From contig JBEKMM010000005.1 in assembly GCA_050008515.1 (NCBI GenBank), positions 70,888 through 134,887 of the forward strand: a stretch of 64,000 bases of DNA, given 5' to 3'. This document shows, one piece after another, positions 3,835-29,032 of the stretch; the stretch's first letter is position 1, and each line of letters starts with the position of its first letter. Under the pieces are notes generated by a model. The model had not been told where the DNA came from. It did not search any database and saw only the letters and a list, made by a program, of their open reading frames with translations. Both the position numbers and the translations under genes were made by a program. Source of the DNA: Candidatus Limnocylindrales bacterium (GTDB lineage: Bacteria > Chloroflexota > Limnocylindria > Limnocylindrales > CSP1-4).

Positions 3835-5010
3835 GTGACCATCCCCTCCATCTCGGCCGGCGGGCCTGCCCGTCCGGACGAGCAGCGGCGCATCCTCGTC
3901 GCCCGCCGCCGAGCCTTCGATGCCATCGCGGGCGAGACGTGGGACGCGCTCGTCGGTCTGACCCCGGCCGCGACTCCCTTCTCGCGCCACTGCGTGCAGC
4001 GGGCGTGGTGGGACGCCTACGGCACCACGGCCCACGACCAGACGATGGTCGTCGTGGACGAGGCCGCCCCGGAGGTGATCGTCGGGATCGCGCCCCTGAT
4101 GCATCGCCACGAGCTGGAGCCGGGGGACGTGGCGGCGCGCACGACGATCCGCCATCAAGTCGGCCCGGTCCTCCGACCCGTGCCCGCCTCCGCGACCGCG
4201 GTCTTCTTCGGCGCCTCGTACCACGCCGACTATGCCACGATCCTGGCGGCGCCCGCGGACCTGCCGGCGGTTTGCGATGCCGTGGTGGCGGCCCTCGCCG
4301 CTGAAGATCCGTCGCGCTGGGACGTCGTGGACCTGCGCCGCCTCCGCGCCGGCGACCCGGCCACCGATGCGCTGGTCGCCGCCTTCGAGTGGGTCGCCCC
4401 GCGCGGCTGCTGGCTGGTGACGCGCGAGCAGGAGGAGGTCTGCCCGGTCCTGACGCTCCCGGCCGGCCTCGACTTCGAGGGCTACCTCGGGACTCTCGAC
4501 AAGAAGGAGCGCCACGAGATCCGGCGCAAGATCCGCCGGGCGGAGGCCGCCGGGCCCATCGCCCTGACAAGGTCGGCCGACCCCTTTGCGGACCTGGAGG
4601 CGTTCATCGACCTGCATCAGAAGCGCTGGGGAGAAAAGGGCCTCTTCCCCGCGACAGCGGGCGGAGCCGCGAGCCGCCGTTTCTTCGCGGAACTGTTCGA
4701 GAGCTGCGCGCCGACCGGAATCGTCGAGCTGGACTTCCTGACGGTCGGAGGGCGCCGAATCGCGGCCGGAGTGATCCTCGACGACGGCCACACCGTTTAC
4801 TACTACAACGCCGGCGTCGAGCCGGATGCCAGAGAGCTTTCTCCCGGAGTGGTCATGGTCGCGTCCTACATCCAACGAGCCATCGAGCTGGGTCGCACCC
4901 GCCTCGACTTCATGAGGGGCAACGAGCCCTACAAGTACGAATGGGGCGCGGTCGACGAACCGATCGAACGGCTGCTCGTCCAGCGGACGGCCGCACCGGA
5001 GGGCCGCTAG
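3835..5010 (+). CDS. GNAT-fold acyltransferase, CelD/BcsL / FemAB-like (Acetyltransf_6-type)
   Basis: 391 aa with GTG start. The C-terminal LDFMRGNEPYKYEWGA and overall length are typical of CelD/FemX-like proteins in glycan loci. Confidence 0.6.
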   Translation: MTIPSISAGGPARPDEQRRILVARRRAFDAIAGETWDALVGLTPAATPFSRHCVQRAWWDAYGTTAHDQTMVVVDEAAPEVIVGIAPLMHRHELEPGDVAARTTIRHQVGPVLRPVPASATAVFFGASYHADYATILAAPADLPAVCDAVVAALAAEDPSRWDVVDLRRLRAGDPATDALVAAFEWVAPRGCWLVTREQEEVCPVLTLPAGLDFEGYLGTLDKKERHEIRRKIRRAEAAGPIALTRSADPFADLEAFIDLHQKRWGEKGLFPATAGGAASRRFFAELFESCAPTGIVELDFLTVGGRRIAAGVILDDGHTVYYYNAGVEPDARELSPGVVMVASYIQRAIELGRTRLDFMRGNEPYKYEWGAVDEPIERLLVQRTAAPEGR

Positions 5011-5105
5011 CGATGGGCGCCGACGAAGACCTCCACGAGGAGCCCTGTGCCGAGCAGGACGGACGCGGGCCACTCCCCGGTGGGCGGGTTCGGGTCGTGG
5101 AGGTC

Positions 5106-6218
5106 ATGGCCACCGGCACCAACGGCGGAGCGCAAGAGCACGTCTTCTCCCTCGCCTCGCGGCTGAACTTGGCCCGCTACGACGTCAGGGTCGTCTCGCT
5201 CTCGCACGGCAGCAGCGTCCGCCGGTTGCAGAAGGCGGGCATCGAAGCGTCGGTGATCGACGAGCCGGACGACCGCCTGGCCGTTCTGGCGCTGGCCGAG
5301 GAGCTGGCCGCCTTCGAGCCCGAGGTCGTCCACAACCACATGTATCGCGCCGAGGTCGTGGGCACGCTGGCGGCGCTGCACCTGGGCGAGAAGGGTTGCC
5401 GCCGCCCGGCCGTCATCTCGACCGTGCATTCGAGCCGAGTCCGCTGCGTCGAGGACCGCGAGAAGCTCCGCCAGCTCACGCCGCTGATGGATCGCCTCAT
5501 CGTCGTGTCCAAAGCGATCGAGCGGAAGATCGCCGACGAGGGGCGCCGTGGCGCGCCGGTCAGCCTCATCTACAACGGCGTGGACCTGCAGCGCTACAAC
5601 CACCAGCAGCCGTGCTGCACGCTCCACGAGGACTACAAGATCGACCCCGATGCCCCGATCGTCGGCGTCGTGGCTAGACTCGAGGCCGAGAAGGGCCACC
5701 GCACGCTGCTCGACGCCTGGCCGCTGGTCCTCGCCGTCGTCCCCAATGCGTGGCTTCTCGTCGTCGGCGAAGGCTCGGAGCGCGACTCGCTCGAGGCCCA
5801 GGCCGACATCCTGGGCATCTCCGGGAGGGTCGTCTTCACCGGCCGCCGCGAGGACGTGCCGGCGGTCACGGCCGCGCTGGACATCTCGGTCCTGCCGTCG
5901 TACCGCGAGGCCCAGGGCCTGAGCGTTCTCGAGGCGATGGCGCTAAGCCGCCCGGTCGTGGCGTCGGCGGTGGGCGGCATTCCGGAGATGATCGAGGACG
6001 GGGTCAGTGGGCTGCTCGTCCCGCCCCACGACTGCGACGCGCTGGCGGCGGCGATCATCCGGCTGCTGACCGATCACCCGCTGGCCGACACGGTCGCCCG
6101 CCGCGGCCACGATCTGGTCCACGACCGCTTCTGCATCGAGCTGATGGTCAAGGCCGTCTCGGACAAGTACGACGAGGCCGCGGTCCGGATCCGCGAGTCG
6201 AAGAGCGTCGCGCGGTAG
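5106..6218 (+). CDS. GT4 (group 1) glycosyltransferase
   Basis: Only the C-terminal 370 aa of ORF 4389..6218 look like protein. N-term MATGTNGGAQEHVFSLA, EAMALSRPVVASAVGGIPE (E-X7-E) and GVSGLLVPP. Start ATG 5106 (alternative GTG 5097). Confidence 0.8.
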   Translation: MATGTNGGAQEHVFSLASRLNLARYDVRVVSLSHGSSVRRLQKAGIEASVIDEPDDRLAVLALAEELAAFEPEVVHNHMYRAEVVGTLAALHLGEKGCRRPAVISTVHSSRVRCVEDREKLRQLTPLMDRLIVVSKAIERKIADEGRRGAPVSLIYNGVDLQRYNHQQPCCTLHEDYKIDPDAPIVGVVARLEAEKGHRTLLDAWPLVLAVVPNAWLLVVGEGSERDSLEAQADILGISGRVVFTGRREDVPAVTAALDISVLPSYREAQGLSVLEAMALSRPVVASAVGGIPEMIEDGVSGLLVPPHDCDALAAAIIRLLTDHPLADTVARRGHDLVHDRFCIELMVKAVSDKYDEAAVRIRESKSVAR

Positions 6219-6247
6219 CGCTTCGCCATGGCTTCGCCACGGTGTCG

Positions 6248-7135
6248 TCAGGGCGCCGTCGCCCGCCAGTAGCGTTCGGCCGGCTCCGTCCCGGCCACCG
6301 TGCCGACCCGCACGGCCCGGGCTCGAATGACGGCGGCCATCTCCGCGTCGCTGCCGAACAGTCGATCGATCTGGCTGGCGTAGGCTCGGATGCCGGCGAG
6401 CTTGCGGTCAGCCAGGTCGCCGCTCAGCTCCACGCACTCTGGGACCAGCCTGATCCAGGGCGAGAGCCCGGCGAGCTGGTCGGGCCTGAGCTGCTCGAGG
6501 CTGTGGAACTCGGCCACCGCGGCGTACGGCAGATCCTCGTAGAAGACGAGCTGACAGTGGCGCTTCGGCGGGATCCCGCCATGCGGGTAGCGCCCACCCC
6601 CCAGCACGATGATGCCGGCCTGGTGGACCAGGCGATGGTCCACGTGCCCGCCGACGGCCAGCGGCAGGTACGCCACCGCGGGGCGCAGGGAGTCCAGGGC
6701 GGCCTCCAGGCACTTGTAGGGCGGCAGGTCGTCGGGCCTGGGCGGGCCCATCAGCTGGTCCTCGCCCTCGTAGCCACGGAACACCGCGTCGGGCTCGTCC
6801 GCCCGGAACAGCCGCGCACCGACGGTGACGGCATAGGCCGCGTCCTCCGCCGCGCGCTCCCTCATCACGTCGGCGGGGGCGAGCGAACCCCGCCGCTCCC
6901 CGAAGCCGAGGGCCTGGCGCTGGTATGGCGTCAGCTCCGCCCGCGAGCCGGCCCCGGAGTAGACGGTGGCGATGCCGACGCTCTCGCCGCGCTTCCGCAG
7001 CCGCGCAACCAGCCCACCGCAGGAGAGTGCCACGTCGTCGGGGTGAGGGGCGACGAAGAGGTGCGTCACCGGCGGTCCCGTGAAAGCCTGCCGGCAAAGC
7101 TCCGGCCCGCGGATCTCCCGGAAGAGGTCGGTCAC
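6248..7135 (-). CDS. PIG-L / LmbE family N-acetylglucosaminyl deacetylase
   Basis: HPDDVALSCGG motif and HVDH. Start re-assigned to GTG 7135..7133, which overlaps the pcm stop in a GTGA arrangement. The upstream 150 aa of ORF 6248..7585 is Arg-rich junk. Confidence 0.75.
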   Translation of the reverse strand: MTDLFREIRGPELCRQAFTGPPVTHLFVAPHPDDVALSCGGLVARLRKRGESVGIATVYSGAGSRAELTPYQRQALGFGERRGSLAPADVMRERAAEDAAYAVTVGARLFRADEPDAVFRGYEGEDQLMGPPRPDDLPPYKCLEAALDSLRPAVAYLPLAVGGHVDHRLVHQAGIIVLGGGRYPHGGIPPKRHCQLVFYEDLPYAAVAEFHSLEQLRPDQLAGLSPWIRLVPECVELSGDLADRKLAGIRAYASQIDRLFGSDAEMAAVIRARAVRVGTVAGTEPAERYWRATAP

Positions 7136-7854
7136 GGCCGCTGCCCGCGGAACCGCCCCGGCCAGTGGCGGCCCGCTCGCGCCAGCGCCTGCTCGTCGTA
7201 AGCCGCGGCGCCGATGAGCGGCACGAAGACGCAGCCACCGAAGGTCCGCTCCTCGAAACCCTCCCCGCGACGGATCACCTGGGTCAGCTCCTGGCCGCCG
7301 AGCGGCCCGACGGGTATGACCAGCCGGCCGCCGTCGGCGAGCTGCCGGCGCAACTGGTCGGGCACTCGGGGCGCGGCGGCGGTCACGATGATGCCTTCGA
7401 ACGGGGCTCCCAATCTCCAGCCGACACTGCCGTCGGCGACCTCGATCCGAATGCGATCGGCCAGCCGCGAGCCCGCAGCCAGGCCCGGCTCGTCCGGGCC
7501 CGTGTCGTTCAGGCTCGGAGAAGCCAGTCGAACGCGAGCGGCGGACGCAAGCTCGGGGTGGCGCTCGAGCGACAGCACCTCGCATCCGATCCGGGCCAGG
7601 ACCGCCGCTTGATAGCCCGAGCCGGTGCCGATCTCAAGGACCCGCATCCCCGCATGCGGCTCCAGGAGCTCGGTCATGAGGGCGACGATGTACGGCTGGC
7701 TGATCGACTGGCCCGAGGCGATCGGCAGGGCCCCGTCGCAGTACGCGTCGTCAACGAGGTTCGGCGGCAGGAACAGCTCGCGCGGCAGCTCGCCCATCGC
7801 GGCCAGGACGCGCTCGTCGCGAATGCCGCGGCCGCGGAGCTGGCGCTCGACCAT
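7132..7854 (-). CDS. pcm: Protein-L-isoaspartate O-methyltransferase
   Basis: MVERQLRGRGIRDERVLAAMGELPRELF... VLEIGTGSGYQAAVLA ... ATG at 7854..7852. The upstream part of ORF 7132..8256 was rejected. Confidence 0.85.
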   Translation of the reverse strand: MVERQLRGRGIRDERVLAAMGELPRELFLPPNLVDDAYCDGALPIASGQSISQPYIVALMTELLEPHAGMRVLEIGTGSGYQAAVLARIGCEVLSLERHPELASAARVRLASPSLNDTGPDEPGLAAGSRLADRIRIEVADGSVGWRLGAPFEGIIVTAAAPRVPDQLRRQLADGGRLVIPVGPLGGQELTQVIRRGEGFEERTFGGCVFVPLIGAAAYDEQALARAGRHWPGRFRGQRP

Positions 7855-7994
7855 CTCCGTGCGCAGCCGGCGGGCATCCTCGGCATCCACCCGTCGAAGA
7901 TACGCCCTCGCCGGGCGCGCGCACGCGAAGATGTGGGCGAGAGCGGGCTCCCGAGCGGCGAGTTCCGGTTCCGGTGGTTGGCCGGCCGAGTCTG

Positions 7995-8513
7995 CTACGA
8001 GGCGCTGGCGCTCGGCGCGGCGGTCGGCGTCGCTGCCGGCGTCGGGGTCACCACCGGCGTGGGCGTCGCGGCGGGCGTCGGCGTTGCCACGGGCGTGGGC
8101 GTCGCCACGGGCGTGGGAGTCGGCACCGGCGTTGGGGTCGCGGGCGGGGGCGAGTACGTCTGCAGGTTCAGCGGCGCAAGCGTGGGTGCGGGGCCCGCGG
8201 GGATGATGCCCGCCACGTACGAGCCGACCAGGATTCCGACCAGGCCCAGCGCGCACACCAGGGTGAACAGCGCCGAAGCGCGGTCGTCGACGTAGACCCG
8301 CTCGTGCGTGGCTTTTACCGAGCCCTGGGCATGGACCTCTTCCTGGGCCGGCGAACGACCGAAGCCGAAGCGACGCCCGGGCCTGCTGGGTTCGAACGCA
8401 GCCCCAGCCCCGGCCTCGTCGCCGGCTTCGAGGTCTTCTTCGAACTCTTCTTCGCCCGGCATGAATTCGTTGGGCTCGCCCTGCTCGAGGGTGTCCTTGT
8501 CCTGGTCCGACAT
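7995..8513 (-). CDS. Small single-pass membrane protein with acidic N-terminus and Pro/Thr/Val-rich C-terminal repeat tail
   Basis: Coherent C-terminal 172 aa of ORF 7995..9845 (MSDQDKDTLEQGEPNEF...). One TM (ALFTLVCALGLVGILVGSYVAGII), then (A/V)TPTP repeats encoded by a GC-rich tandem DNA repeat at about 8000-8150. Confidence 0.5.
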   Translation of the reverse strand: MSDQDKDTLEQGEPNEFMPGEEEFEEDLEAGDEAGAGAAFEPSRPGRRFGFGRSPAQEEVHAQGSVKATHERVYVDDRASALFTLVCALGLVGILVGSYVAGIIPAGPAPTLAPLNLQTYSPPPATPTPVPTPTPVATPTPVATPTPAATPTPVVTPTPAATPTAAPSASAS

Positions 8514-11972: not shown

Positions 11973-12050
11973 GACCACGGCTTGTTGATCCGCTCTGCCG
12001 ACCACGGCTTGTTGATCCGCTCTGGCGACCACGGCTTGTTGATCCGCTCG
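11973..12050. repeat. Three tandem copies of a 27-bp unit GACCACGGCTTGTTGATCCGCTCTG(C/G)C
   Basis: Direct reading: copies at 11973-11999, 12000-12026 and 12027-~12050 (the third diverges at its end). The site lies about 150-230 bp upstream of the HD-GYP start, in a 760-bp gene-free island. Confidence 0.85.
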
Positions 12051-12577: not shown

Positions 12578-13882
12578 TCAGGTGCCCTGGGCGACCGTCT
12601 CCGGGGCCGGGGTGTAGCCCTGCGTCCATGTCGCGGGCACGTACGTCGGCACGACCTGGATGAAGATCTGCCCTCGGACCATCGGAACCGGCTGGCCCTT
12701 GTTCGGACCGGTCGCGTACGTGAGGAGCGTGGGAGCGTATTCCTTCTTCTTGGTCCAGATCGCCTGGGTCGCGATGCCGTTGTTGAAGACCATCGCGTTG
12801 CCGTGGCCGATGTACTGCACGTCCAGGCGGTGCTTCGTCAGGGCGGCTGGGCTGCCCCGGAGCATGCCGACGTTCATGAAGAGCAGGATGACGTTCGAGG
12901 GTGCGATGCGCTCATCGGTGGCGGCGTCCTTCTCGGCGCCTTCGATTTGCACCGTGCGCGGATACGTGTTCGTCTTCCAGTCGTAGGCGTAGGAGACGTG
13001 GTTGGCGCTGTAGGGGATGGTGATCGTGCCGCCCACGAGTCGGGAGCTGGCGGGGAGCGGATCCGCGAAGGTGAAGGGCGACGTCGTGAGGGCCGCCTTG
13101 CCGCCGAGCCTCTGCGTCAGCGCCTCCAGCTTGTTGTACGAGCTGTAGAGGTTGTGGGGCGCCGCTCGGAACGCCGTCCGCCACATGTAGCCGCTCATGC
13201 CGCCAAAGCGGAGCCCGTCGATGTTGTAGATGTACTTGCCGTTGTCGGTGGCCAGGCGGTTCATTGCGTTGGGCGCGCCCCACATGTGCACGTACGCGGC
13301 CTTGTACTCCTCCGCCCAGGCCACGAAGTAGAGCCTGGCGCTGCGGATCGGTCCGATGGCCGGCGGGGCCTGCGTCTGGAATAGCGCCATGTAGCGCGGA
13401 ATGCCGCCCTCGGCAGGACCCTGATAGACGATGTTGGCCATCGACAGTCCCGATTGCGGCCTGGCGCCCCAGTGGTCGTCGATCATGACGGCGATCGGTT
13501 TGCGCGTGGCCAGCTCGGCCTGGTCGGCGGGGAGCCACACCCCATCGGTGGTGGCAGCCACCATCGGCGCCGGGGTGGGCGTGGGGGACGGCGTCGGGAT
13601 CAGCGTGGGCGTGGCCGTCGGCGTCGGCGTGGCTGTGGGCGTGGGCGCGGCGGTGGCTTCGGCGATCTCGGTCGGGCTCGGGGTCGGCGTCGCCGAGCTG
13701 CTCGAGATCTGCGCGACGGCGATGCCGCTGCCCACCAGGGCGACCACGATCACGACGGCGGCCCCGACCACGACCGGACGGCGCGAAAGAAGGCTTCGCA
13801 CGAACGCGGGCGACCGCCCGACCGCGGCACGGCCGCGCCCGAGAAGGCTGCGAATGAGCACGAAGGGGCCCCCACCTTTCAT
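12578..13882 (-). CDS. DUF3048 domain protein (YerB-like), membrane-anchored with Pro/Thr linker
   Basis: N-terminal TM, PTPT linker, and IAVMIDDHWGARPQSGLSMANIVYQGPAEGGIPRYMALF typical of DUF3048. Confidence 0.65.
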   Translation of the reverse strand: MKGGGPFVLIRSLLGRGRAAVGRSPAFVRSLLSRRPVVVGAAVVIVVALVGSGIAVAQISSSSATPTPSPTEIAEATAAPTPTATPTPTATPTLIPTPSPTPTPAPMVAATTDGVWLPADQAELATRKPIAVMIDDHWGARPQSGLSMANIVYQGPAEGGIPRYMALFQTQAPPAIGPIRSARLYFVAWAEEYKAAYVHMWGAPNAMNRLATDNGKYIYNIDGLRFGGMSGYMWRTAFRAAPHNLYSSYNKLEALTQRLGGKAALTTSPFTFADPLPASSRLVGGTITIPYSANHVSYAYDWKTNTYPRTVQIEGAEKDAATDERIAPSNVILLFMNVGMLRGSPAALTKHRLDVQYIGHGNAMVFNNGIATQAIWTKKKEYAPTLLTYATGPNKGQPVPMVRGQIFIQVVPTYVPATWTQGYTPAPETVAQGT

Positions 13883-13939
13883 GCCCGGAAGCCTATCACG
13901 CTCGCCAGACGGCGACGTTTTCAGAATCTCCCGCGCCGG

Positions 13940-14143
13940 CTACGACTCGTATTCGAAGCCGAGCTTCATCTGGACGCGGTACTCCACGATCTCGCCGTTC
14001 TCGACGCGGGCGGTCGACTGGACCACCTCGATCGTCCGGATGTTGCGGACCGTCTTGGATGCCAGGGTCACGGCCTGGCGCGCCGCGTCGCTCCATGAAT
14101 GCGGGCTGGTGCCCACCATCTCTCGCACGATGATCGCGCCCAT
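13940..14143 (-). CDS. Dodecin family flavin-binding protein
   Basis: 67 aa MGAIIVREMVGTSPHSWSDAARQAVTLASKTVRNIRTIEVVQSTARVENGEIVEYRVQMKLGFEYES. ATG 14143 with strong RBS AAGGAGGAG. The rest of ORF 13940..14350 was rejected. Confidence 0.8.
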   Translation of the reverse strand: MGAIIVREMVGTSPHSWSDAARQAVTLASKTVRNIRTIEVVQSTARVENGEIVEYRVQMKLGFEYES

Positions 14144-14266
14144 CGGTCTCCTCCTTTGGCGGGCTAAGTGGCGCCCTACTGGCCGAAGTGTAGGGCCAGA
14201 GGGTCGCGTCCCCACGTCGGTTGGTGGCGCTGGTACTGGGCGCCGACCCACAGGGCGCCTCAAGTA

Positions 14267-14301
14267 TTGACAGTACTCAGCCGATGTTCGATTATCGAAC
14301 A
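14267..14301 (+). promoter_or_regulatory. Putative promoter (TTGACA -35) with a perfect 17-bp palindromic operator TGTTCGATTATCGAACA overlapping the -10, upstream of the XRE gene
   Basis: TTGACA at 14267-14272. Palindrome 14285-14301 (8+1+8, perfect). It sits 19 bp upstream of the XRE ATG with RBS GAGAAGGGAG. Confidence 0.5.
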
Positions 14302-14319
14302 CGAGAGAAGGGAGCTGGG

Positions 14320-14649
14320 ATGAATGACCTAGCGGCCCGCATTCGGGCATTGAGGGAACAGCACGGCTGGAATCAAGCGGACCTTGCCGAGGCAGCCGGC
14401 AACGGCTTGGATCGCGTGAAGGTCAATAAGATCGAGGGCGGGACGCGGAAGTTGAGCTCCATGGAGTTCGCGGCGATCGCCGAGGCGCTGCATGTTCGGA
14501 CGGATGATCTGCTGCAGCCAGAGCCCGCCGTCAGTGCGTACCGCGCCGAGAACGCCGATTCGCCGGCGGCGCGCGAGGCCATGGAATGGTTCGATGGGTT
14601 CATAAGGGACTACCGTCGGATGCAGCGTCTGGACCGCCTTGGTGCCTGA
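14320..14649 (+). CDS. XRE-family helix-turn-helix transcriptional regulator
   Basis: MNDLAARIRALREQHGWNQADLAEAAG... HTH_3 signature. ATG 14320 with RBS. The upstream part of ORF 14221..14649 was rejected. Confidence 0.8.
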   Translation: MNDLAARIRALREQHGWNQADLAEAAGNGLDRVKVNKIEGGTRKLSSMEFAAIAEALHVRTDDLLQPEPAVSAYRAENADSPAAREAMEWFDGFIRDYRRMQRLDRLGA

Positions 14650-14662
14650 GCCCCGGCCGAGA

Positions 14663-15421
14663 ATGGCCGCTCACGCACTCCGCCAGGAGTTGGCCCTCGG
14701 CCATGGATGGGTCGATCCGTTCGCCGCTCTGAGGCAGCGGGGCGTGGTGCTCGTCCGCCATGCCGTGAAGGATGAGGGAGATCTCGACGGCAACTACCGC
14801 CTTGTCGACGATCAGGCCTTCGTGTTTGTCAACTCAAGCCGCCCGGCCGTCCGGCAGCGATTCACGGCGGCCCACGAGTTGGCCCATCACGAGCTGGACG
14901 TGGCGTCGGTACGAGCCAACATCGTCGACGCGGATGTCTACGGCGTCCAAGGCACTCACCGAGACATGAACTTCTTCGCCGCGGCATTCCTGATCGACCA
15001 GGCGGGGGCATGCCAGATGAGAGACGAGGGCCTGGCTGGCGAGGCTCTCGTGGCGGCGACGATCGCCAGGTTCGAAGTCAGCTTCAAGGCGGCGGCCATC
15101 GAGCTGAAGTACCTACACCTGATCACAACGCAGCAGTACGACGATCTGGTCGCCAGGCACGCAGACGAGGAGTTCCGGGTAGGGGAGTTCGTTGCCCAGT
15201 TCGGGCACACGATGCCCACTGGCCCAAGTGTTTCTGAAGAACTGGACCCCAGCTTCCTGGCGATGGTCAAGCGCCGCTATGAGCGCGGCGGTCTGAACCT
15301 CACGGCGGTGGCGGCGGCTCTGCGCACGAGCATGCAGGGAGCGCAGGGTTGGTTAGAGGAAGCGGGCGCTAAAGGGCCTGTGGTCGTCCAAGACGACGGC
15401 GGGTTCTATTTGCCGGAATAG
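14663..15421 (+). CDS. ImmA/IrrE family metallo-endopeptidase (COG2856/DUF955)
   Basis: HEXXH as AAHELAHHELD, about 250 aa, immediately downstream of the XRE gene (alternative TTG start 14639 overlaps the XRE end). Confidence 0.75.
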   Translation: MAAHALRQELALGHGWVDPFAALRQRGVVLVRHAVKDEGDLDGNYRLVDDQAFVFVNSSRPAVRQRFTAAHELAHHELDVASVRANIVDADVYGVQGTHRDMNFFAAAFLIDQAGACQMRDEGLAGEALVAATIARFEVSFKAAAIELKYLHLITTQQYDDLVARHADEEFRVGEFVAQFGHTMPTGPSVSEELDPSFLAMVKRRYERGGLNLTAVAAALRTSMQGAQGWLEEAGAKGPVVVQDDGGFYLPE

Positions 15422-15429
15422 GGGGACGA

Positions 15430-16104
15430 TCAGGCATTCGCCCGCACACTGCTTAGCCGCTCGAGGAAAGCCTTCTGGCCTGGGGGTTCCGCGCTGAGCC
15501 ACAGATACCCCTTCATGCCGTGCGTGTGCACCATCGACTGATAGCCGCGCCAGGCTTCCATCGGGTCGAGGTAGCCCTGGTGGACGAACAGGGCGACGAC
15601 GGAGAATGGGTTGACCGTATGCACCTTCAAGAGCCGGGCGCTGACTGTTGCATCGTGATCGTTGGTGACGAAGGTCCAGCCAGCGGCAGCGTTGCGCCGG
15701 CGGAGGCAGACCACGATCGATTCAGCTTCGCCTAGGTTGTACCTGGCGTCATACGACAATCCATGCTTGGCTTCCCAGTCTCGTTGCAAGTCCAACACCG
15801 TCTGCAGTTCGTCTCTGTCCAGCAGCCCTTCCGGAGACCAATACCGGGGCAAGTGGAAAAAGCTCTCGATCTTCGGGGTGCCGTGCTTCTGATTGAGCAG
15901 CTCTCGATGGACCGCATCGGCCACGTGGAGACGTCCATCGAACGCCATCCGCAGGTGCTCTTCCCAGTCAACGCAGCAGAGGTAGCGGACGACGTGAGTG
16001 TCGACGACGACCTGTCTGGCCGCGAGGATTGTCAGATCCCCCGGCGCTGGTCGAGCGGCCGGTGGCCCGACGCCGGTCGCGGCTGACCCACCCGTTCCCG
16101 TCAA
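15430..16104 (-). CDS. PIN-like domain protein (DUF4411-like), hypothetical nuclease
   Basis: The frame continues from ORF 15430..16305, but a start must lie below the dnaB stop (16134); TTG 16104 is proposed. VVVDTHVV (β1 Asp), NLGEAESIVV and FVTNDHDA (TxD motif) fit a PIN fold. Convergent with and 8 bp from ImmA. Function is uncertain. Confidence 0.45.
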   Translation of the reverse strand: MTGTGGSAATGVGPPAARPAPGDLTILAARQVVVDTHVVRYLCCVDWEEHLRMAFDGRLHVADAVHRELLNQKHGTPKIESFFHLPRYWSPEGLLDRDELQTVLDLQRDWEAKHGLSYDARYNLGEAESIVVCLRRRNAAAGWTFVTNDHDATVSARLLKVHTVNPFSVVALFVHQGYLDPMEAWRGYQSMVHTHGMKGYLWLSAEPPGQKAFLERLSSVRANA

Positions 16105-16133
16105 GAGTGCTCGCCCCCGCGCGCCTGCACGTC

Positions 16134-17483
16134 TCAGACCGCCTCGGCGTAGCGCTCGGCCGCATAGCTCACGAAGCGGGTCTGGCTCTTCTTGAACCAT
16201 AGCTTGACTTCGCCCGTGGGGCCATTTCGATGCTTGGCCAGGCGCAGGTTCACGACCTCGCCGTCCGACTCGCTCTCCTCGCCGGGCTTGTCCCTCTCCC
16301 GCCACAGGAAGAGGACCAGGTCCGCGTCCTGCTCGATGGCGCCCGACTCCCGCAGGTCCGACAGGCGGGGCTCGCGCGACTCGCGCATCTCCGGCTGGCG
16401 CGAGAGCTGGGAGAGGGCGAGGACCGGCACCTTGAGCTCGCGGGCGAGGGACTTGAGCCCGCGGCTGATCTCGGACACCTCCTGGACGCGGTTGGCGTCG
16501 CGGTTGTTGGTGGTCGCCTGCATGAGCTGCAGGTAGTCCACGATCAGCAGGTCCAGCCCGTGCTCCGCCTGGAGCCGGCGGGCCTTGGTTCGAAGCTCCA
16601 TGGTGCTGATGGCCGGCGTGTCGTCGATGAAGAGCGGGGCTTCCGACAGGGAGTTCATCGCCGGCGCGATCCGGGCGAAGTCCATCTCCTCGAGAAAGCC
16701 CGACCGAAGCCGCTGCGAGTCGATCGAGGCGACGCTGGAGAGCAGGCGCAGGACGAGCTGCTCCTTGCTCATCTCCAGGCTGAAGACACCGACGGTCTTG
16801 CCCTCGCGCACGGCGGCGTGCTCGGCGATGTTGAGAGCCAGGCTGGTCTTGCCCACGCTGGGCCGGGCCGCCAGGACGATCAGGTCGTTCGCCTGGAAAC
16901 CGGTCGTGAGCAGGTCCAGGTCCGGGAAGCCCGAGGCGATGCCGATGATCTCGCCGCGGTGGGCGTGCAGGAAGTCCAGCCGGTCGTAGGCGTCGTGGAG
17001 GAGGGCCTTGAGGGCGCTGAAGCTGTCGCCCGAGCGGCGCTGGCTGACCGAGAACAGCTCGGCCTCCGACCGATCGATCGCCTCCTGGATGTCCGGTCCA
17101 TCCTCGTAGCCGATGGCTGCGATCTTGCCGGCCGCCTGGATCAGCCGCCGGAGGAGGGCCTTGCGCTCGACGATTCGGCCGTACTGGGCGACGTGGACCG
17201 CGGTGGGAGTGTCGTTGCCAAGGGTGGAGAGGTAGCTCGCGCCGCCCACCGCCTCGAGCTCGTTGGCGCGCTCGAGCGCCTCCGCGACCGTGACCACGTC
17301 GATCGGCTCGCGATGCTCGAAGAGATCCAGCATCGCCGCGTAGATGCGGCCGTGGGCCTGGCGGTAGAAGTCCTCCGCGTGGAGGAAATCCGCGACCTCG
17401 ATGATCGCGTCGCGATCGATGAGGATGGACCCGAGCACGGCCTGCTCGGAATCCATGTTCTGGGGCGGCAGTCGATCGATCAC
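16134..17483 (-). CDS. dnaB: Replicative DNA helicase DnaB
   Basis: PPQNMDSEQAVLGSIL N-terminus, Walker A GARPSVGKTSLAL, and full-length 449 aa with no intein. Confidence 0.9.
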   Translation of the reverse strand: MIDRLPPQNMDSEQAVLGSILIDRDAIIEVADFLHAEDFYRQAHGRIYAAMLDLFEHREPIDVVTVAEALERANELEAVGGASYLSTLGNDTPTAVHVAQYGRIVERKALLRRLIQAAGKIAAIGYEDGPDIQEAIDRSEAELFSVSQRRSGDSFSALKALLHDAYDRLDFLHAHRGEIIGIASGFPDLDLLTTGFQANDLIVLAARPSVGKTSLALNIAEHAAVREGKTVGVFSLEMSKEQLVLRLLSSVASIDSQRLRSGFLEEMDFARIAPAMNSLSEAPLFIDDTPAISTMELRTKARRLQAEHGLDLLIVDYLQLMQATTNNRDANRVQEVSEISRGLKSLARELKVPVLALSQLSRQPEMRESREPRLSDLRESGAIEQDADLVLFLWRERDKPGEESESDGEVVNLRLAKHRNGPTGEVKLWFKKSQTRFVSYAAERYAEAV

Positions 17484-17759: not shown

Positions 17760-18410
17760 CTAGTCCAGCCGGCGGATGACCCCGATGAGCTTGCCCTGGA
17801 TCCGGACGTCCGCGTAGAACATGGGCGCGTACGCCGAGTTGGCCGGCTGCAGGCGGATCCGGCCGGCTTCCTTGAAGAACTGCTTGAGGGTGACGGAGTT
17901 CTCTTCGACCTGGGCGACGACGATGTCGCCGTCGCGGGCCGTCTGCTGCGGCCGGATCAGGACGAAGTCGCCGTCCTGGATATGGGCGTCGATCATCGAA
18001 TCGCCGCGGACGCGCAGGACGTAGGCATCGCCCGAGGGGGCGAGCAGGTCCGGCACGGCCATGCTCTCCGACGCGTCCTGGTAGGCCTCGATCGGGCCGC
18101 CGGCGGCGATCTCGCCGACGATCGGCAGGACGTGGGCCTCCGTGGCGGTGGCCTGGGGCATCAGCTCGCCCGACAGGCCGAGGCGCAAAGCCGCAAGGGG
18201 CGTCAGGCGGATCGCGCGCGACTGGGCCGCCCCGCGCTCCAGGTAGCCTTCGCGCTCGAGCATCTGCAGGTGATGGTGGACCGCCGACGTGGAGGCGAGA
18301 TCCACCGCTACGGCGATCTCGCGGACGGACGGCGGATAGCCGCGAGTACGCAACGTCGCGGCGATGAAGTCCAGGATCTTGCGTTTGCGTTCGGCGTCGT
18401 GCTTGGTCAC
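17760..18410 (-). CDS. lexA: LexA repressor (S24 peptidase)
   Basis: Winged HTH N-terminus, AG cleavage site (EIAAGGP), RVRGDSM (Ser) and LKQF (Lys). GTG start 18410. Confidence 0.9.
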   Translation of the reverse strand: MTKHDAERKRKILDFIAATLRTRGYPPSVREIAVAVDLASTSAVHHHLQMLEREGYLERGAAQSRAIRLTPLAALRLGLSGELMPQATATEAHVLPIVGEIAAGGPIEAYQDASESMAVPDLLAPSGDAYVLRVRGDSMIDAHIQDGDFVLIRPQQTARDGDIVVAQVEENSVTLKQFFKEAGRIRLQPANSAYAPMFYADVRIQGKLIGVIRRLD

Positions 18411-18460
18411 CGGCGCCTCCTTCCCATCGGAGGGTACAGAACGCCCGTTCGATTGTCAAG
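18411..18460 (-). promoter_or_regulatory. lexA promoter with embedded LexA (Cheo-type) operator
   Basis: On the minus strand: TTGACA - ATCGAACGGGCGTTCTG (17 nt containing GAAC-N4-GTTC) - TACCCT - GGAGG - GTG. Operator core 18428-18442. Confidence 0.75.
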
Positions 18461-28977: not shown

Positions 28978-29032
28978 TTGACGCCGAACGTTTGTTCGAG
29001 TAGTCTCAGGCATGTAATAGAACGTCCGTTCT
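28978..29032 (+). promoter_or_regulatory. SOS promoter with two LexA (Cheo) boxes
   Basis: TTGACG(28978-28983) - CCGAACGTTTGTTCGAG (17-nt spacer; box CGAACGTTTGTTCGA 28985-28999) - TAGTCT (-10, 29001-29006), then a second box AGAACGTCCGTTCT at 29019-29032. Same architecture as the lexA promoter. Confidence 0.75.

Follow-up and report, generated by a model that had tools for sequence, protein, structure and literature searches.

A 64,000-nt stretch of DNA from a Candidatus Limnocylindrales bacterium (assembly GCA_050008515.1, contig JBEKMM010000005.1, positions 70,888 to 134,887; hereafter the window, in whose coordinates all positions are given; G+C content 0.70) carries, between the host genes dnaB and dodecin, a trio of genes for an XRE-family helix-turn-helix (HTH) repressor, a zinc metallopeptidase of the M78 type (COG2856, ImmA/IrrE/CapP-type) and a predicted PIN-fold nuclease. 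With a probability of about 0.6, the trio is a mobile three-gene toxin-antitoxin (TA)-like or defence cassette of the Xre-COG2856(M78)-PIN type, a Rosmer-like unit that may be described as a split RmrA plus a PIN toxin. A TA or phage-defence unit was also the original prediction, made from the sequence of the window, and it remains the best reading given a conserved and mobile trio, a PIN/VapC fold and a regulator pair resembling CapH/CapP, IrrE and RmrA. The association itself is already known: three-component Xre-COG2856-PIN TA systems were predicted in 2009 (Makarova 2009, PMC2701414) and catalogued for the PIN-like families COG2405/DUF3368, DUF4411, PIN_14, PIN_20 and PIN_26 (Matelska 2017, PMC5499597), and ImmA-domain antitoxins were validated as defence systems, under the name RosmerTA, in 2022-23 (Millman 2022, 10.1101/2022.05.11.491447; Ernits 2023, PMC10440598). 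What is new is a rare PIN-like family missed by annotation libraries, a regulator split into two proteins, and a conserved inversion of the nuclease gene. Few direct studies of mechanism have followed since Xre-COG2856-PIN systems were predicted in 2009, and the cassette offers a compact (1.85 kb), naturally delimited test case.

The repressor gene (14320-14649, plus strand, ATG start, 109 aa) lies where originally predicted. A longer open reading frame (ORF) starting at TTG-14221 was rejected, as it would contain the promoter and operator described below and all homologues begin at the Met equivalent to 14320. The peptidase had been placed at 14663-15421; its type stands, and its start probably does not. 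A GTG at 14642, seven codons ahead of ATG 14663, overlaps the XRE stop codon in GTGCCTGA and is kept in every homologous locus, followed by P-E-P in frame, and four of these loci have CTG or CTC in place of the ATG at 14663. The peptidase gene probably spans 14642-15421 (plus strand, 259 aa; 252 aa from ATG 14663), and with this start it overlaps the XRE gene by 8 nt. The third gene (15430-16104, minus strand, 224 aa) is convergent with the peptidase gene, and the gap of 8 nt between their stop codons (15422-15429), measured as originally given, is too short for a bidirectional terminator. Its start, which the original prediction had wished to see checked, is a TTG present with a G-rich Shine-Dalgarno sequence in all loci; in the window the latter is GGGGGCGAG, in the spacer that separates the TTG from the dnaB stop codon (16105-16133, minus strand). 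The short spacing to dnaB was confirmed, at 29 nt instead of the 30 bp reported. Two public gene calls are corrected by this comparison: the PIN-like protein is annotated as 172 aa (ATG 15948), losing an invariant DTHV motif with the catalytic β1 Asp, and the peptidase as 252 aa (ATG 14663), short of the conserved GTG.

In metagenomic contigs the trio recurs in eight different flanking contexts, conserved down to identities of 29% (PIN), 44% (M78) and 43% (XRE). Gene order at each close locus is PIN, peptidase, XRE, the latter two convergent to the PIN gene, and the peptidase and PIN genes lie 7-23 nt apart or overlap by 4 nt. The conserved stretch has the XRE -35 element (14267) as one limit and, as the other, a point some 15 nt ahead of the PIN-like TTG (∼16120). 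Ratios of nonsynonymous to synonymous substitution rates (dN/dS) of 0.05-0.38 across all three genes in unsaturated comparisons (0.05-0.15 for XRE) indicate purifying selection, which holds in the window copy and in the sister genome L009. Because the same trio is found in eight independent contexts, its adjacency is not due to chance, and these comparisons indicate that the three genes are one conserved, mobile unit. Several other copies have surroundings typical of mobile elements or of defence genes (conjugation genes, integrases, TIR, KAP NTPase), which also favours the TA-like or defence reading. A further locus, L099, probably also belongs to this set.

In the distant relatives P0035, P0040 and P0048, the genes form one co-directional operon, HTH->M78->PIN, with overlaps of 1-4 nt between M78 and PIN and of 4-20 nt between HTH and M78. 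Since this is the operon published by Matelska 2017, the window clade is read as an inversion derivative: gene order across the family indicates that the convergent layout is derived, the PIN gene having been inverted from an ancestral HTH->M78->PIN operon. The conserved inversion uncouples the nuclease gene from the XRE-controlled promoter, and with regulator operon and nuclease gene physically apart, protein neutralisation and transcriptional switching become separable questions.

The PIN-like protein is rare, with nine relatives among 5.8 billion proteins and 40 matches in a profile search of 1.84 billion cluster representatives. A scan of genome contigs gave a single relative, a truncated protein of 115 aa from Arthrobacter whose neighbourhood lacks HTH and M78 genes, and a viral contig scan and tblastn against phage and plasmid collections gave no matches. 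The family was compared with Pfam, NCBIfam, PHROGs and PADLOC models (the Matelska 2017 clusters PIN_14 and PIN_20 lie outside Pfam), and scans of the window protein against these four returned nothing significant; a Flavi_DEAD match (0.006) and PDC-S70 matches (∼0.02) were judged noise. The original description as DUF4411-like did not survive, as none of 43 family members matched DUF4411 (PF14367) at E≤1, nor did six of them at E≤10; by profile comparison the family lies outside DUF4411. None of the 43 matched the classical PIN model (PF01850). The only family hint, a weak one, comes from weak or faint precomputed matches to DUF3368/COG2405 (PF11848) in the distant relatives P0012, P0035, P0040 and P0048, which were not reproduced by our own hmmscan at E≤10 for these four or for the window protein.

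Structural comparisons were more informative. The family profile aligns to a solved PIN domain (1o4w, E 6.8e-4) via the β1 Asp, helix Glu and T-x-D motifs, pairing the family motifs DT.V/..EL and T.D with the same motifs. VapC toxins ranked first for an initial AlphaFold model built from nine sequences (predicted local distance difference test, pLDDT, 65). A second model used an alignment of 13 sequences, the close clade plus four distant members, and reached a pLDDT of 76.8 and a predicted template modelling score (pTM) of 0.75; its top 27 Foldseek matches were all VapC/PIN, at probabilities of 0.94-1.00 (18 of the 27 at 0.99-1.00), bearing out the comparison with VapC proposed earlier. The nearest solved folds were VapC15, VapC11, VapC21, VapC26 and Rv0301. 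As modelled, the protein has the three-layer α/β/α architecture of PIN domains, preceded by a disordered N-terminal stretch (residues 1-25) and extended at the C-terminus by helical sequence. The motifs VVVDTHVV, GEAES and FVTNDHDA noticed in the original prediction are real, and the acidic residues asked of a nuclease are retained across the family. The predicted active site consists of D35 (16000-16002), E68 (15901-15903), E126 (15727-15729) and D149 (15658-15660), on the minus strand. Neither the close clade (8-9 sequences) nor the 13-sequence alignment shows any variation at these four positions; across the aligned 43 family sequences G125, E126 and D149 never vary, and D35 and E68 are retained by 90% or more. 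Fold model and conservation together identify the third protein as a VapC-like nuclease of PIN fold whose acidic site is intact and whose activity is predicted. A rare PIN-like family missed by Pfam, NCBIfam and PADLOC models is one that annotation pipelines for defence and TA systems overlook.

The other two proteins form an ImmA/IrrE-type repressor-peptidase pair, as had been proposed. The XRE protein matches HTH_31 (2e-11) and HTH_3 (1e-9) in Pfam, its best PADLOC model is capH (7.4e-10), and its profile matches C.AhdI (1.3e-10) and CapH (7t5u, 2.5e-6) in the PDB. The HTH (residues 1-66) is followed by a conserved C-terminal helix, YRAE..SPAAREAxEWFDxFIRDYRRMQR. The peptidase matches Peptidase_M78 (1.1e-11) and the PADLOC models RmrA (6e-15) and capP (3.1e-11); its HEXXH motif is HELAH (14873-14887), within a stretch, RQRFTAAHExxH, that is invariant in a nine-sequence alignment. 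A profile of these nine sequences matches an IrrE orthologue (8slm, 7.5e-9), CapP (7t5t, 1.8e-8) and IrrE (3dte, 5e-8); single-sequence PDB searches with XRE and with M78 were uninformative. Scanning the three proteins with PADLOC models, a check in the spirit of the original prediction, recognised the pair (capH for XRE, RmrA and capP for the peptidase), and the PIN protein gave no significant match.

The C-terminus of the peptidase (15250-15421) carries a segment resembling an HTH, RYERGGLNLTAVAAALRTS..AQGWL, and ends in a conserved tail of acidic and aromatic residues, DDGGFYLPE, which is EDDGF in L002, L005 and L006. We take this tail to be reminiscent of the C-terminal tips of single-stranded DNA-binding (SSB) proteins.

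In CapH, CapP cleaves the Phe82-Arg83 bond, which lies in helix one of the C-terminal dimerisation domain (Lau 2022, 10.1101/2022.04.27.489752), and IrrE is reported to cut DdrO in its C-terminal dimerisation domain (PMC12828697). By analogy, the conserved C-terminal helix of the XRE protein would be the type of region cut by CapP and IrrE, with a predicted cut site at residues ∼85-100, EWFDGFIRDYRRM.

A sigma-70-type promoter of the XRE-peptidase operon (14267-14295, plus strand; TTGACA, 17 nt, GATTAT; 10 of 12 matches) was the sole match in a promoter scan of 13800-16400. Overlapping its -10 element is a 17-bp perfect palindrome, TGTTCGAT-T-ATCGAACA (TGTTCGATTATCGAACA, 14285-14301), the predicted XRE operator. 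It is unique in the window (chance expectation, 0.05 matches), and each of ten loci has a single copy of the motif, invariably placed immediately before XRE. Six aligned loci agree fully in the -35, the -10 and a 19-nt stretch around the palindrome, and differ in the spacer and in the sequence upstream of the -35. L003, whose XRE protein is 45% identical, carries TGTTCCAAAATGGAACA, in which the outer half-sites TGTTC-N7-GAACA are kept and the inner bases changed. To our knowledge the operator is unrelated to the radiation/desiccation response motif (RDRM) of Deinococcus.

Across the loci, the 300 nt preceding the PIN gene contain no operator half-site. The original prediction had the nuclease released by derepression when the ImmA-like protein cleaves XRE; because the operator is absent upstream of the PIN gene and occurs only at the XRE promoter, with the PIN gene on the opposite strand, that route is unsupported. 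In L001 and L010 a promoter-like TTTGACAT..CTGGCATG lies 65-90 nt upstream of the PIN-gene TTG. In the window the 29-nt spacer holds no promoter-like site, so expression of the PIN gene probably depends on read-through from dnaB. No terminator at the convergent junction is conserved across loci; a hairpin GTCGTC..GACGAC at 15383-15400 was set aside as a by-product of VV..DD codons that is not conserved in L001.

Compared with described Xre-COG2856-PIN systems, the window trio has the same domain types (XRE HTH, HEXXH M78 and VapC-like PIN with an acidic site), is likewise mobile and patchy, and is encoded together as a set conserved in eight contexts; distant relatives of its PIN family sit in the described co-directional operon and are the ones with weak DUF3368 matches. 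It departs from them in that not all three genes share one transcript: in the window clade the PIN gene is inverted and convergent, no more than 23 nt from the peptidase gene, and relies on start signals of its own and, in some loci, on a separate promoter. This clade also encodes the HTH and the peptidase as two distinct proteins, and the PIN family matches no current Pfam model. RosmerTA is close in another respect. The RmrA models match the two regulators as two halves, the peptidase over profile positions 121-291 and the XRE protein (5e-5) over 6-59, on which account XRE and M78 are regarded as a split RmrA. However, RmrA is a single fused HTH-M78 protein encoded on the same strand as its toxin, whereas the window has two proteins with the toxin gene on the other strand, and the PIN protein matches no RmrT model. 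An ImmA-domain antitoxin holding a toxin is nevertheless likely to be a logic that RosmerTA and the window trio share.

The pair is similar in sequence to CapH/CapP, by the PADLOC and PDB matches given above, and as in CapH/CapP, IrrE(PprI)/DdrO and ImmR/ImmA the repressor combines an N-terminal HTH with a conserved C-terminal helix and has a palindromic operator at its own promoter. The upstream-divergent layout with a shared operator of CapH/CapP is replaced here by a convergent one with the operator at the XRE promoter only. Whereas ImmR/ImmA elements have an integrase and att sites, the window insert is 2 kb long and holds the trio alone, without a tRNA gene or terminal repeats. With VapBC the trio shares the toxin fold, VapC toxins being the closest solved structures with the same acidic active-site pattern; the window PIN protein, however, lacks a Pfam PIN (PF01850) match, has no small VapB upstream, is 224 aa long with extra N- and C-terminal segments, and is partnered by XRE and a peptidase on the opposite strand.

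These likenesses suggest how the cassette might work. An XRE dimer would bind the 17-bp palindrome over the -10 of the near-consensus promoter, as its architecture and conservation imply, and autorepression would keep expression of the translationally coupled XRE-peptidase operon low and self-limiting. The PIN-like nuclease would be expressed separately and weakly from the opposite strand, from its conserved TTG and in some hosts from its own promoter. As it is not under the XRE operator, its restraint would have to act after translation, presumably through the peptidase, the XRE C-terminal helix or both, in the manner of RosmerTA ImmA-domain antitoxins; such protein-level neutralisation appears more likely than derepression. 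Precedents exist in that the ImmA-domain antitoxin hub pairs with PIN-like toxins (Ernits 2023) and that rmrA could not be deleted, perhaps owing to toxicity (Millman 2022). Stress or infection would then provide the signal that turns on the latent peptidase. Such a signal has a precedent in single-stranded DNA: it activates cleavage of the partner repressor by CapP (Lau 2022), activation of CapP by single-stranded DNA and a cysteine switch in the peptidase are described in PMC13228613, and single-stranded DNA is presented as the PprI activator in PMC10904395. The activated peptidase may cut the C-terminal helix of XRE, breaking the neutralising complex and derepressing the antitoxin operon, whose transcripts would run antisense into the PIN gene. 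The freed nuclease would cleave RNA and arrest growth, serving abortive infection or maintenance of the cassette or its element.

Several observations weigh against this interpretation. In the window the PIN gene lies directly behind the essential dnaB and lacks its own promoter, a position that would suit a potent toxin poorly if it were not efficiently neutralised. PADLOC sees no RmrT in the PIN protein, its best matches (E 0.011-0.019) being to unrelated models. No invariant cysteine occurs in the nine-sequence M78 alignment, and the cysteine switch of CapP can therefore not be assumed; judged from the alignment, the window M78 appears to lack the switch loop as defined in PMC13228613. Finally, L004 (480-2320), a copy beside a resolvase gene, is frameshifted in M78 and PIN, with several frame breaks in M78 and an altered PIN C-terminus, which may reflect decay or long-read assembly errors.

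The main rival to a TA-like cassette, unlikely though stronger than the two considered later, is a purely transcriptional switch of the CapH/CapP or ImmR/ImmA type in which XRE and the peptidase serve only to sense stress and regulate, and the PIN protein is a regulated effector, not a neutralised toxin. Here cleavage of XRE would let the strong XRE promoter fire through the 8-nt junction and change PIN expression by transcriptional interference or antisense RNA. The capH and capP matches and the profile match to CapP fit this scheme, as do the near-consensus promoter with its operator on the -10, convergent stop codons 7-23 nt apart or overlapping everywhere with no conserved terminator, and retention of the convergent layout down to 29% identity. 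However, CapH/CapP regulators are described as lying always upstream of and divergent from the operon under their control (Lau 2022), whereas the trio is convergent with no operator at the PIN gene; the overlapping single operon of the distant relatives is a pattern typical of complex-forming proteins; and antisense read-through would lower, not raise, the effector on induction.

The TA-like reading can be extended to include such interference. In the window clade the toxin and antitoxin units point towards each other, their 3' ends in contact or overlapping. If the inversion is functional, antisense transcription through the PIN gene would add a transcriptional-interference layer to a protease-gated TA system: firing of the XRE promoter after XRE cleavage would run antisense through the PIN gene, and read-through from PIN or dnaB would do the reverse. 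We regard this as a speculative and rather improbable extension. If it is true, control would be hybrid, setting the timing or the extent of nuclease release much as in convergent restriction-modification units with C-proteins, and a mobile nuclease would be plugged into the transcription of the replicative helicase gene.

How the trio came to lie between dnaB (16134-17483, minus strand), beyond which lies lexA (17760-18410, minus strand), and dodecin (13940-14143, minus strand) is apparent from related genomes. A DnaB scan of metagenome contigs gave 80 loci, and the order lexA-dnaB-dodecin is widespread among relatives (DnaB 70-94% identical, L019-L051). In blastn against L019, whose DnaB is 94% identical, homology stops at 16133 and resumes at 14155, and in L019 the dodecin ATG follows 93 nt after the dnaB stop codon, delimiting an inserted segment of ∼1.98 kb (14156-16132). 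L020 (DnaB 91%) has no XRE, M78 or PIN-like match, its dnaB-dodecin gap holding a different 316-aa ORF, and in L027, L035, L037 and L041, among others, dodecin follows dnaB directly. G+C content is 0.638 in the insert against 0.70 in the flanks, and at third codon positions it is 0.76-0.79 in the trio genes against 0.91-0.94 in dnaB, lexA, dodecin and DUF3048. Empty sites and foreign composition indicate that the cassette was horizontally acquired. Because the trio was inserted into an otherwise conserved lexA-dnaB-dodecin block, its neighbourhood with dnaB and lexA is coincidental. The meaning that the original prediction saw in this position is lost, the site being empty in L019 and the trio containing no LexA box (GAAC-N4-GTTC), and the picture of SOS and replication control is unchanged by what is an accident of insertion. 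No terminal repeats or target duplications pair the two ends of the insert; the only repeats near them, direct ones of 11-17 nt and inverted ones of 11-19 nt (74-92% complementary), were judged to be chance. In agreement with the original prediction, no integrase was found within 10 kb on either side of the trio and no prophage nearby. The 64-kb window has no tRNA gene.

The surroundings of the trio bear on a second rival, namely that it is a remnant or module of an ImmR/ImmA-like element-immunity region, with PIN merely cargo, left in the genome as a non-functional fragment. The trio is flanked by dnaB and dodecin in the window (L013-L016) and L009, by a PNP_UDP_1 gene in L010-L012, by genes for a TIR protein and an integrase in L001, and by genes for a KAP NTPase and an integrase in L003 (PIN 29% identical). 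Such a remnant would be in keeping with the integrases within 4-5 kb in L001 and L003, with the pair lying directly downstream of Replic_Relax, FtsK/TraG-like and VirB4-like conjugation genes in L002 and L005, and with the window copy being an insertion of foreign composition. We consider it quite unlikely, since the three genes alone are common to the contexts, with conservation ending at the XRE -35 and the PIN Shine-Dalgarno sequence; the insert is only ∼2 kb, without integrase, tRNA gene or repeats; all three genes are under purifying selection in the window and L009; and the one operator per locus does not face transfer genes. It is very improbable that the PIN protein is instead a housekeeping RNA- or DNA-processing nuclease, co-transcribed with dnaB, linked to replication or SOS and unrelated to the regulator pair, an explanation that draws on the promoterless 29-nt gap to dnaB, the same placement in L009 and a Cheo-type LexA box (18439-18450) ∼30 nt upstream of the neighbouring lexA, but is largely refuted by the empty-site comparison (no PIN gene in L019, no trio matches in L020, dnaB next to dodecin in L027, L035, L037 and L041) and is further opposed by the company of XRE-M78 and not dnaB that the PIN gene keeps elsewhere, by its nine homologues among 5.8 billion proteins, and by foreign codon usage and the lack of a LexA box in the trio.

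Further features were seen around the trio and its homologues. Synonymous divergence (dS) between the window and L009 is 0.42-0.72 for the trio genes against 0.21 for the neighbouring dnaB, a two- to threefold difference that may point to the cassette having been replaced, or to recombination at the same site, as opposed to simple vertical descent. In relatives, dnaB and dodecin are separated either by 60-160 nt without a gene or by a lipoprotein-like gene of ∼310 aa, a CxxC zinc-ribbon gene of ∼100 aa or both; a role of this gap as a hotspot for TA cassettes was rejected since other relatives hold these genes instead. In L002 and L005 the PIN gene is preceded at 15 nt, in the same orientation, by a gene (507-1511 and 1933-2946, respectively) for a protein of 334-337 aa without a Pfam match, which may be a further partner or cargo. 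Two other copies have defence-associated neighbours: in L001 a TIR-domain protein gene (103-702; TIR_2 7e-21) adjoins the PIN gene, and in L003 a gene for a 1176-aa KAP NTPase (4494-8024) adjoins XRE. The L006 contig starts 66 nt upstream of the PIN gene, and beyond XRE it carries small genes without Pfam matches.

Elsewhere in the window, two more GAAC-N4-GTTC boxes at 28986 and 29020 (28986-29031) suggest another SOS-regulated promoter; the ORFs beside them have no Pfam match. A 27-nt tandem repeat (2.9 copies, 98% matches) occupies 11973-12049, in the intergenic region between the HD-GYP and DUF3048 genes.

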